This document shows positions 9,366 through 18,875 of a stretch of DNA of 64,000 bases, one piece after another. The notes beneath the pieces are model-generated. The model had not been told where the DNA came from and searched no databases. It saw only the letters and a list, made by a program, of their open reading frames with translations. Origin of the DNA: Hyphomonadaceae bacterium (GTDB taxonomy: Bacteria; Pseudomonadota; Alphaproteobacteria; Caulobacterales; Hyphomonadaceae); NCBI GenBank assembly GCA_027485145.1, contig JAIXRO010000103.1, positions 37,244 through 101,243 on the forward strand, given 5' to 3'. The position numbers were made by a program, and so were the translations under genes. The first letter of the stretch is position 1. The number at the start of each line of letters is the position of its first letter.

Positions 9366-9424
9366 AGAAACTATGCTAGTATCCACAGTCTAAACAACAT
9401 TTGTGTGGAAATAGGAATTTCTTC

Positions 9425-10759
9425 ATGCCCCGGAAAGACCCTTCACGATCGGAGCAAACGCTCACAATTGCGCCCAGTCAAGCCACCCGCTCGAAGCAAA
9501 GCAGGCAAGGAACACGGCTCACTCAGCGCCTCGCAAGTGAAGCCAAGAAGAGCGGTGTGAAGCAGCGCATCGCAGATCATGAGGTGAAGGGTCTCTTCCT
9601 TCGGATCACGCCTACCGGCGCCAAAAGTTATGTCCTGCGCTATTCCCAAGAGGGCCGGCGCGGCGAAGCGGCAATTGGCGATGCGACGGCCATTACCCTG
9701 GTCGCCGCGCGAGCCAAGGCAATGGATCTGCTCAACTCACTGACGCTGCAGGGGATTGATCCGGTCCAGGCGAAGCAAGCGGCCATTGTCGCCGAACGCC
9801 AGCGAAAGAATGCCTCGTTCGCTGCCCTGACAGAAGCCTACTCCAAGGATGCTGCGCGCCGAAAACGGCCGAGGACGCTTGAGTATGAGGCCTGGCTTCT
9901 GGAGAAGCACATCCTGCCGAAGCTGGGCCAACGTCCGTATGCAGAACTGCGCCGCTCGGAGATCATCGCGTTCATTGAAGCGATCGGCGATAACACTGGA
10001 CAGGTTACCGCCAACCGGGCTCATGCGGTCATCCGTCAGATTCTGAACTATGCTTTGAAGCGCGATCTCATAGGTGCCAATCCGGCTCTCGGCATTGAGC
10101 GGATGTTTCCGGAAGTCTCCCGTGAGCGGATTCTCAATGAGAGCGAGATCCGCAAACTCTGGTCTTTTCTGGAGGCAGCCCGGGCCAATAGCGGTAAAGG
10201 TTTGGCGCCCGGGCAGCGGCTGGGCGAGCGGCCTGTCAACATCGTCTCTCCAGCGGTCGCAACGGCGCTGCAACTCTGCCTTCTGACATTGCAGCGCAGC
10301 GGCGAAGTCGCAGGCGCCCGGATCGAAGAATTCAGCTGGAAGGACCGGCTCTGGATCATCCCCGCCGATCGCATGAAGGGCAAACGCGCCCATGCCGTGC
10401 CGCTATCCGGTCTGGCCATGGAGCGCTTCCAATCCGCTTTCAAACTGGCCGGGGGAGATATCGCATTCAAGGACCGCTCGGGCGAATCCAGTGTCGATCC
10501 GAAACGCCTTACGCGCGCCATGAACCGCTGCTGCACGCACCTCGGACTCCTCAATGCGGGGCCACACGATCTGCGCCGCACGGGCCGCACGATGATGACC
10601 AGTGAAGAGGTCGGCGTGTCCTATGAAGTTGCCGAGCGGGTGATTGCCCATCTCTTCGGCTCAGCGGTAAGCCGGGTCTATGACCGCAACGAGTATCTCC
10701 GCGAAAAGCGCGCCGCGCTGGATCGCTGGGAAGAGGTCCTCCTCAAGATCGTAGGGTGA
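9425..10759 (+). CDS. Tyrosine recombinase/integrase with N-terminal arm-binding domain (P4-like)
   Basis: GLFLRITPTGAKSYVLRY arm domain; catalytic LQRSGEV (R), HDLRRT (H..R), IAH, and VYDRNEY (Y). Confidence 0.95.
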   Translation: MPRKDPSRSEQTLTIAPSQATRSKQSRQGTRLTQRLASEAKKSGVKQRIADHEVKGLFLRITPTGAKSYVLRYSQEGRRGEAAIGDATAITLVAARAKAMDLLNSLTLQGIDPVQAKQAAIVAERQRKNASFAALTEAYSKDAARRKRPRTLEYEAWLLEKHILPKLGQRPYAELRRSEIIAFIEAIGDNTGQVTANRAHAVIRQILNYALKRDLIGANPALGIERMFPEVSRERILNESEIRKLWSFLEAARANSGKGLAPGQRLGERPVNIVSPAVATALQLCLLTLQRSGEVAGARIEEFSWKDRLWIIPADRMKGKRAHAVPLSGLAMERFQSAFKLAGGDIAFKDRSGESSVDPKRLTRAMNRCCTHLGLLNAGPHDLRRTGRTMMTSEEVGVSYEVAERVIAHLFGSAVSRVYDRNEYLREKRAALDRWEEVLLKIVG

Positions 10760-12227: not shown

Positions 12228-12731
12228 TCAGGGAAACTTGCGCCAGGTCCCTTCGATGTCCGCAGCCGATATGACGCCCCAGTAACGTCCATCGAAGCTG
12301 AGCGGATCATCACCGAGAAGGAAAACCTCGCCCTCCTTGAGCGTCTTGCAACCGGACCACTGAGGTAAAGCGATACCGGCCGAATCCATTTGAGACACGG
12401 CGGCAACACGCACGTCATTGATCATGATCTGACCATTCTCGGAACAGACCCGGTCCCCGGGAAGCGCGGCAACCCGTTTCAGGAAACGGTCCCCCGCCGC
12501 CTTCACATGACCAGCCTCGACATAGGCGAGGTCGACGGCGCGCACCGGGATTGTAACCACAGCGCCTCGCTCAATTTGCGCGTCAACCCAAATGTAAAAG
12601 CCAGGCTCGAGAGAGGCCGAAGGGTTGTAGAGGACCACGTCCTGCCTGCTGAGCGCCGCAAAGCTTAGCGCTGCAACCGCAATGGCGGCTGCGCCAAGAC
12701 TCGCGCGTGAGGAGAGGGATCGAGGCTTCAT
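12228..12731 (-). CDS. traF: S26 family conjugative signal peptidase TraF
   Basis: YNPSASLEPGFY, FLKRVAALPGDRVC, VFLLG...SFDGRYWG. Confidence 0.92.
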   Translation of the reverse strand: MKPRSLSSRASLGAAAIAVAALSFAALSRQDVVLYNPSASLEPGFYIWVDAQIERGAVVTIPVRAVDLAYVEAGHVKAAGDRFLKRVAALPGDRVCSENGQIMINDVRVAAVSQMDSAGIALPQWSGCKTLKEGEVFLLGDDPLSFDGRYWGVISAADIEGTWRKFP

Positions 12732-12856
12732 TGACCCCGGTCTGCGCAAGTCCCGGGCCATAAAGCGGTTGCACACGCGGCAAAGAGAGATAGCCTTAAC
12801 CGGCTCGGAAGCGCGGCCTATTTATGTGGGGCCAGTCTAAGGAATGCAGTATGCCG

Positions 12857-13178: not shown

Positions 13179-14357
13179 ATGGACCTCCGACTCAATCCCT
13201 ATGCCCCGGGCGCCGGCGCACCGCCGCCTGAACTGGCCGGACGTGACACGCTGATCGAGAACGCGAGTATTGCGCTTGACCGCATCCGCGCAGGACGCGC
13301 TGCGAAAAGCCTCATCCTTGTCGGCTTGCGCGGCGTCGGAAAAACGGTGCTGCTGAACCGGATCCGCAATGACGCATCAGCGGCGGGGCACTTCACCATC
13401 TGGATCGAAGTGCCGGAAGACAGGTCGCTGCCCGGCGTCCTCGCGCCCGCCTTGCGGGCTGGCCTCCTTAAGCTGGACCGGATGGCGGGCGCGGCGAGCA
13501 GCGCACGCAAGGCGCTGCGGGCGCTCGCCGGGTTCATCGGCGCGATGAAGGTCAAGTACGGTGATGTCGAGGTTGGGCTCGACATCGATAGCGAAGCTGG
13601 CCTTGCCGATACCGGCGACCTTGATGCTGATCTCGCCGACCTCCTCGAAGCCGCGGGTGAAGCCGCCCGTGACCGCAAGACCTCTCTGGTCCTCTTTCTC
13701 GATGAGCTCCAGTATGTGCCTGAAGCTCAGTTTGCAGCTTTGATTTCTGCGCTCCACCGCTGCGCGCAGCGCCAACTCCCGGTGACGCTCGTCGGGGCGG
13801 GACTGCCTCAGTTGATTGGCCTCTCAGGCCGAGCCAAGAGCTACGCCGAACGCTTGTTCGAGTTTGTCTCTATTGGCGCCCTGGACCCGGACGCTGCGAG
13901 CGATGCCCTGGTCGCCCCTGCCCGCGCCTTGAACGTTGACTACACAAAGGACGCCCTCGCCGAAATCTTTGAACAGACAGAGGGCTATCCCTATTTTCTG
14001 CAGGAATGGGGCAAGCATGCCTGGGCAACAGCAGATGCCTCGCCAATAGACCTGGGAGACGCAAAGCAAGCGACCCTCGATGCGCTGGGCGAGCTCGACG
14101 CCAGCTTCTTTCGTGTGCGGCTCGACCGTCTGAGCCCGGCCGAGAAACGCTACCTTCGCGCTATGGCTGAACTTGGCCCGGGACCGCATCGTTCAGGTGA
14201 CATCGCAGCGATGCTCACACGCAAGGTCGCGACCGTCGCGCCCATTCGCGCGAGCCTTATCGCCAAGGGGATGATCTACAGCCCCAGCCACGGCGACACA
14301 GCCTTTACGGTCCCCCTGTTTGACGCGTTCCTGAAACGGACGCTTCCGCTCGAATAG
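13179..14357 (+). CDS. AAA+ family ATPase with probable C-terminal winged helix
   Basis: Walker A GLRGVGKT, Walker B LFLDE, GYPYFLQ; C-terminal LSPAEKRYL...IRASLIAKGMIY. Confidence 0.85.
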   Translation: MDLRLNPYAPGAGAPPPELAGRDTLIENASIALDRIRAGRAAKSLILVGLRGVGKTVLLNRIRNDASAAGHFTIWIEVPEDRSLPGVLAPALRAGLLKLDRMAGAASSARKALRALAGFIGAMKVKYGDVEVGLDIDSEAGLADTGDLDADLADLLEAAGEAARDRKTSLVLFLDELQYVPEAQFAALISALHRCAQRQLPVTLVGAGLPQLIGLSGRAKSYAERLFEFVSIGALDPDAASDALVAPARALNVDYTKDALAEIFEQTEGYPYFLQEWGKHAWATADASPIDLGDAKQATLDALGELDASFFRVRLDRLSPAEKRYLRAMAELGPGPHRSGDIAAMLTRKVATVAPIRASLIAKGMIYSPSHGDTAFTVPLFDAFLKRTLPLE

Positions 14358-14388: not shown

Positions 14389-14421
14389 CAAAGCCGCCCC
14401 AGAGTTTCCTCCGGGACGGCT
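14389..14421 (-). terminator. Hairpin after DUF736, likely intrinsic terminator
   Basis: Minus strand AGCCGTCCCGGAG-GAAA-CTCTGGGGCGGCT followed by TT. Confidence 0.55.
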
Positions 14422-14441
14422 CGGCTCAGGTAGATGAAGGG

Positions 14442-14765
14442 CTATTCCTTCGGGTTCCAGAGGATCACGTGCCGGCCTTTCTTGCCTTTGACGGGGGCGA
14501 GGTTCGCGAAGATCTTGCGGGGTCCGATCTGCGGGTCGGCGAGCGTGATCGAGAGGTATTCCCGGCCTGATTGCTTTGCCTTGCGCATCCAGCCACCGCC
14601 GATTTCGGTCGAGGTTTCTCCGGCGAAGATGCGGTAGTCCGGCTGACCGTCTCCGGCTTTTTCCGCATTCTTCTCGATGCGGATGGCAGCTGACAGGTTC
14701 ATCATTGCGAGGCTGCCTTCGAAGCCGGTCTTGGTTTCGGTGACATATCCGAGTGCGTTTGCCAT
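14442..14765 (-). CDS. DUF736 family protein (ICE/plasmid backbone)
   Basis: MANALGYVT, QPDYRIF...EIGGGW, GREYLSITLADP, ILWNP; GGAG RBS upstream. Confidence 0.9.
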   Translation of the reverse strand: MANALGYVTETKTGFEGSLAMMNLSAAIRIEKNAEKAGDGQPDYRIFAGETSTEIGGGWMRKAKQSGREYLSITLADPQIGPRKIFANLAPVKGKKGRHVILWNPKE

Positions 14766-14841
14766 GGGGGGTCTCCTTTTCGTTTCCTTGGCTGTCTTCC
14801 GGGAACCCCTTGTTCCCGTCGACGCCGGACCGAAAGGACGG

Positions 14842-14978
14842 CCTGCACCGGGCCTGAACCCGAAGGGGCGTAGCGCAACGGAGCACCTGACCGGCGATGA
14901 ATTTTGATGCCGCGCGAGGAATGCGCCGCAGGCGCAGGGGAAAATTCTTCGCAGGGCAGGTTTCAGGCCCGGCGCAGG
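14842..14978. promoter_or_regulatory. Long nested inverted-repeat structure upstream of DUF736
   Basis: 14842-14858 pairs with 14962-14978 (16/17); GAATTTT 14899-14905 pairs with AAAATTC 14941-14947; inner hairpin TGCGCC-gca-GGCGCA. Confidence 0.6.
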
Positions 14979-15223
14979 TCGTCCAGGTCCAACGGCAAGA
15001 GACGGAAACAAGGGGGCCGCGAGAGGCAGGCTCCCGGAACGAATGAGGCCCCTCACCCTGCAACGCAGTCTGTTGTCGCGGAAGAAACCAAGGCCATTTT
15101 GAACAGCATTTCTAGCGCCTTGAACCTGCTGCACTTTGATCCGCACACAGAGACCCTCGCGCAAAAAACCGCCCGGCGGCAAGCACCGGGCGGCTCCCTT
15201 CTGCCTGAGAGGAGACGAAAAGC

Positions 15224-16993
15224 TCAGGCAGCGGTGGCTTCATGGGACAAAGGTTCGGCGCCGGTTTCCTGCTCCGCATCCGCCTCGAACAGTCCCGCAA
15301 CCCGGTCCCACGCATCGGCAGGCGGACACGCTGCGCCCTCGATCTGGCGGGTCGGCGGCACCTGCATCCAGCCGGGACGCCAGCCGGGATCAGGCGCACA
15401 TCCTTCGCCGCTGATCCGGTTTGCCAGCACCGTCTTCTGCGCCTTCGCGGTATCGGTCGCGCAGGTCTCGGCAAGGGACGGTGACCTGATATCGGCCACC
15501 ATCGCATTGATCACCCGTTTGTCGCGCAGCAGGTCAAAGAATGCGTCATCCGGCTTCCAGAACTCACCCGGATCGGCGCTGCAGGCATGCAGCACCGCCT
15601 CGACGGCTGGCCCGCCTGAGTCCAGCGTGTCCGCCATCGCAAGTGCCATCACCTGCATCACTTTGGCGTCGGACATGGCCAGCAAAGCGGCGAAGGTTTC
15701 GCACAGGTGATAGGCGTCGCCACTCCGGCGCGGCACAGGCGCACCGAGTGCCTCGAACAGGGCCTCCACGCCTTCGCGCGTGGCGCCAAATGCAATAGCA
15801 GCAGTGCCGCCCGCGACGCTCGCAAGTGTCGCTTCCTTTATGGCGCCCGGATGGTGGAGCCGGACGTTCCAGAGTCCGGAACCGCACAGCGCATGCGCCG
15901 CCATAAGGCGCAGCGCGATGGCCGGGTTCCGGACAAGGCTTGCCTGCGCAGCGGCGTGCCGGTGCAGTCCGATATAGTCCGCCATCGGGCCAGACATTTC
16001 AGGGCGCGTGTCTAATTCCGGCACCGTTTCGCCGCTTGCCTTAGCCGTCCTGGACTTGCGGGCCTCAGCCGCCTTGAGCCAACCTTCGTGGAACGTCACC
16101 GTGCCATCATGGCGCTGCTCGACGATGACCTTGCCGCCCTGCTTCTTGGTCGTTTGGACATACTCCCAGCGCTGGAAGTATGCGCCGCGCTCCATCAGGA
16201 TCACATCGGTCCAGCCGCGCTGCCGGTAGCCATCGACGCGTTCAGCGATCACGGCACCCTGCGCCTCCCAGAATGCTGCAGCATCAGAAAACACCGCCGT
16301 CTCGCCGAACAGGTCGGCGGTCACCGCGCCGGTGTAACCAGCGAGGTCGAACAGCGCCTTGTCGGTCGTGATCGCACTACCGCCGGTGATCCACGCGCGG
16401 CAGGACCGCCCCATCGGGGCGCGCTCTGACTCGCTGTTCCAAAGGTTCAGCCAGTCGGCCTGCTGGGCAGGCGTGGCAAGCGTCAGGGCTCTGATGGTCT
16501 CCCGGTCGATCTCCTCATCGGCATAGAGCTTGCGGATCGGGGCGCTCAGCGCTGCCAGCGCCAGCACGCGTCGTACGTTCAGTTCTGTCACGCCGAAGAA
16601 CCCCGCAATCTCCTCGACGGCTCTTCCCTCGTCGTGAAGCTTCCGGAATGCCGTGTACTGTTCCATCTCGGTGGCAGGCAGGCGCGCCACGTTCTCGATG
16701 ATGGACGCTTCGATGGCGGAGGCTGCATCGCCCTCGAGCATCACCGCGCAGGGCACCAAGGGATCACTGCCGGTCTCCTTCGCAATCTGCTGAAGTGCAA
16801 AGAACCGGCGGCGCCCGGCGACGATGCCGTAGCCGCCCGCTTCACGCCGCACGAGCAGGGTCTGGCGGAGGCCCTTCTCTCGGATGGACGGCAGGATGTC
16901 GGAGACATCCGGCGTCTTTCGGCCATGGCGCATGTTGAGTTTGGAAATGCTGAGCTGGCTCAGCGGCAGGTGGATCAGGTCAGGTTGTGACAT
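15224..16993 (-). CDS. ParB/RepB/Spo0J-domain protein (long ICE/plasmid type)
   Basis: LSKLNMR, GLRQTLLVR, IVAGRRRF and ASIIENVAR motifs, then an HTH; start MSQPDL with GAGGAG RBS. Confidence 0.92.
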   Translation of the reverse strand: MSQPDLIHLPLSQLSISKLNMRHGRKTPDVSDILPSIREKGLRQTLLVRREAGGYGIVAGRRRFFALQQIAKETGSDPLVPCAVMLEGDAASAIEASIIENVARLPATEMEQYTAFRKLHDEGRAVEEIAGFFGVTELNVRRVLALAALSAPIRKLYADEEIDRETIRALTLATPAQQADWLNLWNSESERAPMGRSCRAWITGGSAITTDKALFDLAGYTGAVTADLFGETAVFSDAAAFWEAQGAVIAERVDGYRQRGWTDVILMERGAYFQRWEYVQTTKKQGGKVIVEQRHDGTVTFHEGWLKAAEARKSRTAKASGETVPELDTRPEMSGPMADYIGLHRHAAAQASLVRNPAIALRLMAAHALCGSGLWNVRLHHPGAIKEATLASVAGGTAAIAFGATREGVEALFEALGAPVPRRSGDAYHLCETFAALLAMSDAKVMQVMALAMADTLDSGGPAVEAVLHACSADPGEFWKPDDAFFDLLRDKRVINAMVADIRSPSLAETCATDTAKAQKTVLANRISGEGCAPDPGWRPGWMQVPPTRQIEGAACPPADAWDRVAGLFEADAEQETGAEPLSHEATAA

Positions 16994-17004
16994 GGGATAG
17001 CTCC

Positions 17005-17256
17005 TCAGAATGGAAACAGGTGTTGGGGCGCAAGGGCGAGGCCCAGCCGCCACGGCGGCAGGTGCCAGTTGATCGGCACGTACGGCGCGCCGAAGAAATC
17101 AAGCGAGGCATCCGCTGCGCTGGCGCCGAGATCAAAATCCCGGATCGTTACATTCGGGCAGCGGCCTTCCACCCAGATGGCGGTGACAAAGCCCTGCTCG
17201 ATGTCGAGCGTCAGCGATGGGCGCGGGCCGAGGAGCTGTTCGAAGATGTCCGGCAT
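17005..17256 (-). CDS. Hypothetical protein, 83 aa
   Basis: Stop/start coupled with the upstream ORF at 17256; GGAGGG RBS; co-oriented in the ardA-parB operon. Confidence 0.65.
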   Translation of the reverse strand: MPDIFEQLLGPRPSLTLDIEQGFVTAIWVEGRCPNVTIRDFDLGASAADASLDFFGAPYVPINWHLPPWRLGLALAPQHLFPF

Positions 17257-17771
17257 CAGGCGCCCTCCATCGCTTGCACATGCGCGGCGAGCCGAATGAG
17301 CGTTTCACGGGCTATAGCAACGGCCTCGGGGAGCAGTTCGTTCGCGACCTCTGTGAGGTAGCTGTTATCCGTTCCCGGATAGTTGGCCTCGATGCCCCAG
17401 AGGCTCGCCGCGTGGGATGCGAGCATCACGCCCTCCAGAGAAACGGACAACACGATCCCGCAATAGAACCAGTCGCCCTTGCGCCAGCCTTCCATGACGG
17501 CTTCAGCCTTGGCCTGCGCCTCGGTGAAGCGCTGGCGATGGTTTGGCCCGTTCGGCGGAGAATTGGTCCCCCGGACCAATTCCTGATCCGCCTCACCAAT
17601 GAGCCCCGGCGCATCGGCATAGAGCGAGGGCCAAAAACCGTCCTGGCGCTGATCGGGCGCGTCCGGACAATCGTCCGGTACAACCTGCGCCAAGACGGCG
17701 AAAGGCTCGGCCTCGCAGGTGATGACATCACCGGGGCAGACATAGGATTGGAAGCCTTGAGCGAACATCAT
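17256..17771 (-). CDS. Hypothetical protein, about 171 aa, acidic
   Basis: ATGA overlap with the upstream ORF, GGAGGG RBS, protein-like composition (W..GDWFYCGIV, SLWGIE). Confidence 0.75.
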   Translation of the reverse strand: MMFAQGFQSYVCPGDVITCEAEPFAVLAQVVPDDCPDAPDQRQDGFWPSLYADAPGLIGEADQELVRGTNSPPNGPNHRQRFTEAQAKAEAVMEGWRKGDWFYCGIVLSVSLEGVMLASHAASLWGIEANYPGTDNSYLTEVANELLPEAVAIARETLIRLAAHVQAMEGA

Positions 17772-17980
17772 GCTTCGCCCTCCGCGTACAGGCCCGCTAT
17801 GGCGATCCAGTGCGGGCCGTAGACAGCCCGCTCGCCGCATTCGTCGCATTCATAGCCGCTCGCGTCCGGCTCGCAGCCGTCACGCGGGGCGCGGCAGGCG
17901 AGGCAAAAGCCCTCGGACCAGTCGTCCGCCTGCTGCAGTTCCTCGAGGGTGAACCGGTGCTTGGTGGTTTCGGGAGTCAT
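17768..17980 (-). CDS. Small zinc-ribbon-like protein, 70 aa
   Basis: CLAC...CDECG paired CxxC motifs; GGAGGG RBS directly after ardA. Confidence 0.75.
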   Translation of the reverse strand: MTPETTKHRFTLEELQQADDWSEGFCLACRAPRDGCEPDASGYECDECGERAVYGPHWIAIAGLYAEGEA

Positions 17981-17994
17981 GTCCGCGCCCTCCC

Positions 17995-18561
17995 CTACCG
18001 CGACCAGAAGACATGGACTTCGTCGAAGCCCATCTGGAACACCATGATCTCGCCATTGAGCGCCATGTCGCGGGCGAGTGCCTGCCAGTCGATATAGTAG
18101 CTGAGGCTCTCGGGAATCGCGGTGCCGCGTTCGGTGTGAAGCTCCTCGGCAAAGTCGGCGGCGCTGCGATACTCGCCCGCATAGTCTTCAAACGCGGCGC
18201 GCGCCTGCTCAAGGTCGTTGCCGTAGTGTCCATAGATGCGGGCAGCGAGCTGCCCATACTCGCCGATGAATTCGGCAAGCTCGCACACGGTCTCGAACGA
18301 GGCGTATTCGGAAAGGTGCGCGCCTTCGAAGCCTTCGTAATCGTGGATCGCCCATTCTTCGGCATCGGGCTCCGGGCTGGCGCGCAACATCGCCGAAACT
18401 TCGCGCCAGATTTCGTCCGGCGTCGTGGCCTCGATCCAGCGCCCGTGCAGGCGTCCGTTGTTGTAAGCGGCGAGGCACGCAACGTAGATGCGTGGCCTGT
18501 CCTGAAGGGTTGGCGCACCCGCAGTTCCAAGAAGTGCAACGGCAGTGGTCTGGTCGGTCAT
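17995..18561 (-). CDS. ardA: Antirestriction protein ArdA
   Basis: PRIYVACLAAYNNGRLHGRWI, EEWAIHDYEGF and YIDWQALARD motifs; very acidic. Confidence 0.95.
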   Translation of the reverse strand: MTDQTTAVALLGTAGAPTLQDRPRIYVACLAAYNNGRLHGRWIEATTPDEIWREVSAMLRASPEPDAEEWAIHDYEGFEGAHLSEYASFETVCELAEFIGEYGQLAARIYGHYGNDLEQARAAFEDYAGEYRSAADFAEELHTERGTAIPESLSYYIDWQALARDMALNGEIMVFQMGFDEVHVFWSR

Positions 18562-18615
18562 GTCTCGTCTCCTCTCGCCGCGCGTCTTTCCCGGTCGGGT
18601 GGGCGGCAGGGAGGT

Positions 18616-18715
18616 GCGCAGCCAGGGCGCTGAAGGCGCGGCGCAACCGGGCCAAGTCCGAGACTTTCAACGCCCGCCGACGCCCTAGATCTGCCCGGTT
18701 GCGGCGCGACTGCGC
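18616..18715. promoter_or_regulatory. Long inverted repeat upstream of ardA
   Basis: 18637-18652 pairs with 18693-18708 (15/16); GCGCAG 18616-18621 pairs with CTGCGC 18710-18715. Confidence 0.6.
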
Positions 18716-18875
18716 TCTGGCAGAAGCACCGTCCGCCCACCTGACAGGGAAGGATTATGTAGGCGGGATGAGATCTGCATGACCCTCGGCACCAGATCCG
18801 GTTTGCCGGGGGGGTGACGCAGCAAATGGTCCGAAACTTGCCTCAGCGTCCTGAGGACAAGAATGGAGCCTCAGC

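Follow-up and report, generated by a model that had tools for sequence, protein, structure and literature searches.

Three small open reading frames are found between a gene for the anti-restriction protein ArdA and a gene for a ParB-like protein in the genome of a Hyphomonadaceae bacterium, and the question raised by this locus is whether they encode new anti-defence proteins, as the original prediction had it, or serve other functions of the mobile element that carries them. We refer to the three ORFs as orfA, orfB, and orfC, in the order in which they follow ardA, and to the whole stretch of DNA analyzed, 64,000 nucleotides in length, as the window.

Gene organization and selection

The features of the locus are listed in Table 1. 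The genes ardA, orfA, orfB, orfC, and parB form a five-gene operon, with a folded leader before it and a terminator-like hairpin after it. The gap from the ardA stop codon to the orfA ATG is 14 nt, the stop codon of orfA and the ATG of orfB overlap by 4 nt (ATGA), the TGA of orfB and the ATG of orfC have one base in common, and the orfC stop is followed after a gap of 11 nt by the ParB ATG at position 16993. A GGAGG or GAGGAG is present 6 to 9 nt 5' of each of the starts of orfA, orfB, and orfC, and an alternative longer frame of 197 aa exists for orfB. These features bear out the original prediction of three ORFs at positions 17005 to 17980, each with a strong ribosome-binding site, which are chained by overlapping stop and start codons; their location between ArdA and ParB is likewise confirmed by the Pfam matches of the two flanking genes (Table 1) and by a structural database match of the ParB-like protein described below. 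The encoded proteins are acidic, with a pI of 4.27 for orfA, 4.29 for orfB, and 4.50 for orfC in comparison to 4.40 for ArdA, and the net charge of orfB is -15, in agreement with the acidity claimed for the protein of about 171 aa.

Table 1. Positions in the window of the genes and other features of the ardA-parB locus and of the element that carries it
Feature	Position	Strand	Evidence or remark
Tyrosine integrase	9401-10759		Element gene in window
Relaxase-domain gene, 398 aa	10781-11974		Element gene in window
TraF-like S26 peptidase	12231-12776		Element gene in window
AAA ATPase (AAA_16)	13179-14357	+	Element gene in window
DUF736 gene, conserved unit of the mobile module after parB	14442-14765	-	Pfam PF05284, 1.3e-23
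Terminator-like hairpin with T-run, directly after the parB stop	15168-15185	-	Consensus scan, pattern match only
ParB-like gene, 589 aa, final gene of the operon	15224-16993	-	Pfam ParB_N, 8.9e-9
orfC, 83-aa protein	17005-17256	-	In-frame ParB fusions in relatives, dN/dS 0.12
orfB, 171-aa acidic protein	17256-17771	-	ArdA synteny, family search, AF2 model
orfA, 70-aa acidic protein, predicted zinc ribbon	17768-17980	-	CxxC core conservation, dN/dS 0.11
ardA, anti-restriction protein, 188 aa	17995-18561	-	Pfam PF07275, 8.2e-45, full domain
Conserved non-coding leader 5' of ardA, long imperfect hairpin	18562-18760	-	DNA similarity, ssDNA folding

With a GC content of about 64%, the interval is overlapped by long spurious ORFs on both strands. 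Because such overlapping frames are common at this GC content, coding status was tested by calculating dN/dS against orthologues in related loci. The results showed that the median dN/dS was 0.11 for orfA, 0.20 for orfB, and 0.12 for orfC in comparison to 0.14 for ArdA, with dS in these comparisons reaching 0.3 to 1.2. The three ORFs are genuine protein-coding genes under purifying selection.

The DNA similarity of the leader to related ICEs extends to about position 18745. When folded as single-stranded DNA, the + strand, which is the ardA template, gave -64.7 kcal/mol (z -5.2) and the - strand gave -56.1 kcal/mol (z -3.3), and the leader can be considered a candidate promoter or single-strand promoter. 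The hairpin of the leader comprises about 185 nt, and is 8.6 kcal/mol more stable on the template strand of ardA than on the coding strand. An Rfam scan of the region returned far sub-threshold matches only.

The mobile element and its predicted leading region

The genes for a tyrosine integrase, a relaxase, and a TraF-like peptidase in the window, along with a coupling protein (T4CP) gene at position 110 kb and a VirB4/TrbE gene at 114.6 kb of the same contig, indicate that the operon is carried by an ICE of at least 68 kb, which includes about 50 kb of cargo beyond ardA. The relaxase and TraF-like genes are located 4 to 6 kb from the operon and are co-oriented with it, and the operon is probably located in the leading, i.e., first-transferred, region of the ICE, the oriT itself and the polarity being predicted. 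Leading regions are known to carry SOS inhibitors besides anti-restriction genes, and their anti-defence genes are encoded on the T-strand, where Frpo-type promoters can drive them (PMC11541004).

Similar to the leading-region anti-defence islands described previously (Samuel et al. 2024, PMC11541004), the operon has ArdA followed by co-oriented small genes of unassigned function, its orientation is compatible with the predicted transferred strand as the template for transcription, and a strongly folding leader precedes the first gene. A difference is that the carrier here is an ICE of marine Alphaproteobacteria, and that the orfB and orfC families gave zero matches in 72,556 plasmid records, suggesting that orfB is not a general leading-region gene; in addition, the oriT and the polarity are predicted here, and the leader is a candidate promoter only. 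The ArdA-anchored island arrangement is thus known, while the protein families found in it are uncharacterised.

The block from DUF736 to 180 nt 5' of ardA (14390 to 18745) has 79% to 88% DNA identity to the closest loci, which are mostly from Hyphomonas. The relaxase, in contrast, is only 33% identical to the 645-aa relaxase with DUF3363 of an otherwise near-identical element, and L019, the one locus with the same relaxase-peptidase backbone as the window, lacks the AAA ATPase gene. Together these two observations suggest that the DUF736-parB-ardA block moves between backbones and that the element is a mosaic, and the low identity of the relaxase between otherwise near-identical modules further suggests that the distance of the module from oriT varies by element.

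With regard to distribution, 45 of the 151 Hyphomonadaceae genomes sampled (about 30%) contain orfB, as do 20 of 27 genomes of the host genus, and a single genome may have as many as ten matches; in a sample of 400 genomes from the whole phylum, orfB was found in only one. The genome analyzed here has a further copy of the pair, ardA and orfB with orfA in between, on another, short contig (C169:2388-3561), about 6 kb from a VirB4 gene, and this copy is probably part of another ICE of the family that lacks the large cargo. In one related Hyphomonas ICE (L009:1927-6642), a type I restriction-modification methylase, a specificity subunit, and a DUF6119 gene are located directly 5' of ardA, and this element therefore bears a type I system right next to its inhibitor.

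Constant and variable positions of the operon

Gene order was compared across a set of 80 related genome loci from Hyphomonadaceae and other Alphaproteobacteria, which are phylogenetically close, so that counts are not to be read as numbers of independent events. The order was constant in these loci, namely ArdA, a first variable slot (slot 1), orfB, a second variable slot (slot 2), ParB, and DUF736, the last of which follows ParB in most of them. An ArdA match was present in all 80 loci, and ArdA was located no more than 450 nt 5' of orfB in each of the 64 loci with enough flanking sequence. Slot 1 was occupied by orfA in 28 of 64 loci, and by an unrelated small ORF or nothing elsewhere, while slot 2 was occupied by orfC in 45 of 72 loci and empty in the others. 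Five loci retain ArdA and orfB without ParB, orfA, or orfC, suggesting that orfB is tied to ArdA rather than to ParB and that orfC goes with ParB; orfC without a ParB match was found in only two loci (L016 and L063). The survey of gene neighborhoods that had been proposed as a check on the original prediction has therefore yielded a consistent partner for orfB, and the same pairing was found again in two temperate-phage lineages (see below).

Two single loci show other occupants of these positions. In L063 (8887-9542), orfC is retained and a PIN-domain toxin-like gene and a small antitoxin gene, as judged by eye, are found in the place of parB. On an Algimonas contig (L154:5477-6124), the product of the slot 2 gene, 215 aa in length, consists of a MutS domain I on its own (PF01624, 1.5e-32) and could interfere with mismatch repair of the incoming DNA.

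orfB: a conserved acidic family of its own

The orfB family comprises 1129 matches by single-sequence search and 2057 by profile search, all annotated as 'hypothetical', in 515 clusters at 50% identity with no name and no Pfam domain. Searches of Pfam, NCBIfam, and PHROGs with orfB returned function-less PHROGs only, of which PHROG 5644 (no known function) was matched at an E value of 1.8e-6 between residues 82-164 and positions 31-119 of the 125 in the profile. The fusion partners found in long orfB homologues were only GP88 and DUF6926, neither of which has a known function. Acidity is a trait of the family rather than of this copy, with a median pI of 4.55 and 81% of members below 5.

The conserved core covers residues 80-165, consisting of a helix, a beta-hairpin, and a helix, and contains the motifs W..(D/G)(E/D)WFYCG and LWGIE.NYP..DN.YL.EVA.ELL. 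Across the diverse family, the positions with at least 90% conservation are F, W, G, P, A, and L residues along with Asp33, Asn130, and Asn136, which form a structural core with no recognizable catalytic set. Conservation of the acidic loop DDxPDxPDxRxDGFWPS is confined to the ICE clade, in which E128 and D135 are conserved as well.

The AlphaFold2 model of orfB, built with 80 sequences, reached a pLDDT of 92.2 and a pTM of 0.82, with a single weak loop that holds a 14-residue insertion of this copy and a few others. Foldseek searches with this model gave no fold match in the PDB (best E 0.26, TM 0.16), and searches of the PDB by sequence or profile gave no match for orfA, orfB, or orfC. Against BFVD, only uncharacterized phage proteins were matched (E 2e-6 to 4e-4, TM 0.48 to 0.60), with hosts as distant as Rhodococcus, Mycobacterium, Achromobacter, Aeromonas, and Salmonella. 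The members of PHROG 5644 and the BFVD proteins A0A6J5RHD2, A0A7T3U6U9 (Achromobacter phage AchV4), and G9FHP4 (Rhodococcus phage RGL3) have the C-terminal helix-hairpin-helix core in common with orfB, but in many of them the N-terminal hairpin and the acidic loop seen in the ICE proteins are missing, and none has a known function. The structure search that had been proposed as a check thus succeeded as far as a confident model and phage-only relatives are concerned, while it returned no PDB match.

The original prediction regarded the small acidic protein as a possible DNA mimic. Like ArdA and Ocr, the DNA mimics that act on type I restriction, orfB is small and strongly acidic (pI 4.3); it is also transcribed together with ArdA and occurs in the early regions of phages. 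Of the mimic idea, however, only the charge holds, since orfB resembles neither ArdA nor any PDB entry, known mimics included, in sequence, profile, or fold, and its core is much more conserved than that of typical mimics. A relationship of orfB to ArdA itself was rejected, with no match by Pfam and a probability of 0.1 by hhalign against the ArdA alignment.

Relatives of orfB in phages

Relatives of orfB with 28% to 57% identity were found on 56 IMG/VR contigs and on several metagenomic contigs, which carry terminase, primase-helicase, and integrase genes and are therefore considered to be genuine phages. The phage copies are located among runs of small same-strand early ORFs. The identity between the ICE and phage versions reaches 57% in the core, and the N-terminal part with the acidic loop is absent from many phage members. 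In two temperate-phage lineages with a T7-type terminase and an integrase, the orfB relative (32% identity) adjoins an ArdA gene (33% to 43% identity).

Several other neighbors were observed in the phage loci. On one phage contig, an Acb2/Tad1-hairpin gene is located 2 kb from the orfB relative. In 12 phage loci, orfB lies near a small terminase gene, and this proximity could point to another DNA-end function for orfB. A conserved protein of about 330 aa (PHROG 7247) is encoded after orfB in seven phage loci, namely L085 (6501-7490), L001 (5591-6589), and five others; two copies that were compared are 29% identical (E 6e-23), and orfB and PHROG 7247 may represent a phage-specific two-gene module. 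A hidden ParB link in phages was considered for this protein and rejected, as the PHROG 7247 protein is unrelated to the ICE ParB.

orfA: an optional small gene with paired cysteines

The double-CxxC protein of 70 aa named in the original prediction was substantiated by its relatives, as the cysteine pattern CxxC-x6-C-x8-CxxC is kept in 34 of 35 distinct relatives from ICEs, phages, and plasmids. The core GFCxACx6CEPDAx3YxCxxCG is common to the ICE and phage relatives, and the core was found in six viral contigs and in two near-identical Methylocella tundrae plasmid records. Searches of Pfam, NCBIfam, and PHROGs assigned no family to orfA at threshold, with Pfam matches to C1_2 and DUF7129 falling below the cut-off. 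As judged from this pattern and from the synteny, orfA is a predicted zinc-ribbon gene and an optional occupant of the variable slot 1.

The neighborhoods of orfA relatives outside the ICEs contain methyltransferase genes. On phage contig L152, the relative is directly 5' of an N6/N4 DNA methyltransferase gene, with a C5 methyltransferase gene about 1.3 kb further, while on the Methylocella plasmid it is located about 500 nt 5' of a gene for a methylase-helicase of more than 1500 aa, within a run of about 15 small co-oriented genes of unassigned function. In its domain content, the methylase-helicase resembles DarB of phage P1. Along with the location behind ArdA in the ICEs, the phage and plasmid contexts give three independent anti-restriction neighborhoods for orfA, which is an association rather than a function. 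Although orfA relatives are found immediately 5' of orphan anti-restriction methyltransferase or DarB-type methylase-helicase genes in both phage and plasmid, orfA itself is a 70-aa putative zinc ribbon with no methyltransferase domain, and is linked to these enzymes by neighborhood only.

orfC and the ParB-like protein

In addition to the ParB_N match (Table 1), the ParB-like protein has a weak match to HTH_ParB in Pfam, its residues 6-177 match Spo0J/ParB/Noc entries of the PDB (7e-11), and the GxxRxxA motif is visible in the translation as GRRRFFA. The protein thus has the N-domain, the GxxRxxA motif, and the HTH of the CTP-dependent ParB/Spo0J/Noc clamps; it differs from them in that no ParA-type ATPase gene was found on this contig and in that the C-terminal part of about 400 aa belongs to no family.

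The orfC family is narrow, with 92 proteins, and searches of Pfam, NCBIfam, and PHROGs gave no match for orfC. In 21 related ICE loci, orfC homologues with 40% to 54% identity are fused in frame to ParB, giving ORFs of 672 to 689 aa in which orfC takes the place of an N-terminal extension, whereas in the clade of the window orfC and ParB are separated by a stop codon and a frame change. The linker of the fusion, GAA AAG GAG ACC CCC ATG, retains a Shine-Dalgarno sequence before the ParB start, and long and short forms of ParB may therefore both be made. From the fusion it can be argued that orfC acts on ParB or together with it, and a detachable N-terminal ParB module that has split off is a better reading of orfC than a free anti-defence effector. 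Such a module is not known from characterized ParBs.

The AF2 model of orfC had a pLDDT of 67, and its fold search was uninformative. The lowest confidence was found in the most conserved C-terminal motif, INW..P.W.LGL.L.P, as would be expected of a segment that folds on a partner. The idea that the conserved RLGL(A/S)L motif of orfC is a ParA-contact peptide like those at the N-termini of chromosomal ParBs was dropped as unsupported, as there is no ParA on the contig. For the orphan ParBs of conjugative elements, which are poorly understood, the orfC-ParB fusion offers a tangible lead.

Proposed function and alternative explanations

The best explanation overall, to which we assign a probability of about 0.5, is that the operon consists of genuine genes and is an entry module in which orfB is a binder, orfA an accessory, and orfC a modulator of ParB. 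According to this explanation, the operon would be expressed early in the recipient and serve entry or establishment, orfA would be an accessory of the anti-restriction functions, and orfC would modulate or tether ParB. For orfB, the proposed role is that of a stoichiometric protein binder, which would block and thereby neutralize a host function beyond the reach of ArdA, probably a defence factor. We rate this role at somewhat less than an even chance; it is proposed because orfB is small and acidic, and its conserved positions are aromatic, hydrophobic, Gly, Pro, and Asn/Asp rather than a catalytic set.

The ArdA linkage, the phage early regions, and the orphan methyltransferase neighbors of orfB and orfA would fit early-entry or anti-restriction roles. 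Arms-race inhibitors and DNA mimics are not usually as strongly conserved as the orfB core, and this conservation, like the absence of orfB from the plasmid records, counts somewhat against a classical arms-race inhibitor. Anti-defence activity of the three genes, none of which is linked by homology to a defence target, would be only a reasonable guess, made from genomic associations: the candidate set of the original prediction remains fitting for orfB and orfA but less so for orfC, in view of the 21 fusions that favor its reading as a ParB module. A further and more tentative idea, on the doubtful side in our judgment, is that orfB represents a new structural family of inhibitors that act in the entry phase, found in both ICEs and phages and directed against a host defence or repair function beyond ArdA. 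If true, this would explain why orfB is locked to ardA in every element of the ICE family and recurs beside ardA in unrelated temperate phages. Anti-defence genes have mostly been found by guilt by association, and on that basis orfB is a strong candidate and a well-supported target for defence-panel screening, from which a new inhibitor, along with a defence or repair pathway limiting gene transfer in marine Alphaproteobacteria, could be revealed.

It was also considered that orfA, orfB, and orfC could be accessory factors of ParB, serving the maintenance of the ICE, silencing, or post-entry DNA handling with no link to immunity. The three genes do share an operon with ParB, the N-domain of which is of the canonical CTP-binding type, and the in-frame fusion of orfC to ParB in 21 elements points in the same direction; however, ArdA and orfB persist in the five elements without ParB, orfA, and orfC, the phage relatives of orfB and orfA have no ParB nearby, many elements have ParB without orfC, and no ParA-like gene was found on this contig. 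We therefore regard this explanation as unlikely.

Quite unlikely, in our estimate, is a role of orfB in countering the SOS response, mismatch repair, or recombination, similar to that of PsiB in enterobacterial leading regions. The SOS inhibitors known from leading regions (PMC11541004) would be a precedent for it, and the MutS domain I protein in the slot after orfB in Algimonas suggests that repair-directed functions can be found in the operon, but orfB has no fold or sequence likeness to any PDB entry, which covers PsiB if it is in the PDB, and its consistent partner is ArdA.

For the very strong conservation of the core, and for the acidic loop of the ICE clade with E128 and D135, an enzyme, e.g., a metal-dependent one acting on DNA or on a nucleotide signal, would also offer an account. 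This was considered improbable, since the positions that stay at or above 90% across the diverse family are only F, W, G, P, A, L, D33, N130, and N136, with no conserved set of His, Cys, Ser, Lys, Arg, or Glu, the N-terminal part with the acidic loop is missing in many phage members, and no enzyme fold was matched by Foldseek in the PDB.

Finally, that one or more of the three ORFs are chance open frames, as the long spurious ORFs on both strands of this GC-rich DNA might suggest, has a negligible probability and is refuted by the selection analysis (dN/dS 0.1 to 0.2 at dS up to 1.2), along with protein relatives at 28% to 60% identity in unrelated phages and a plasmid and the confident model of orfB.
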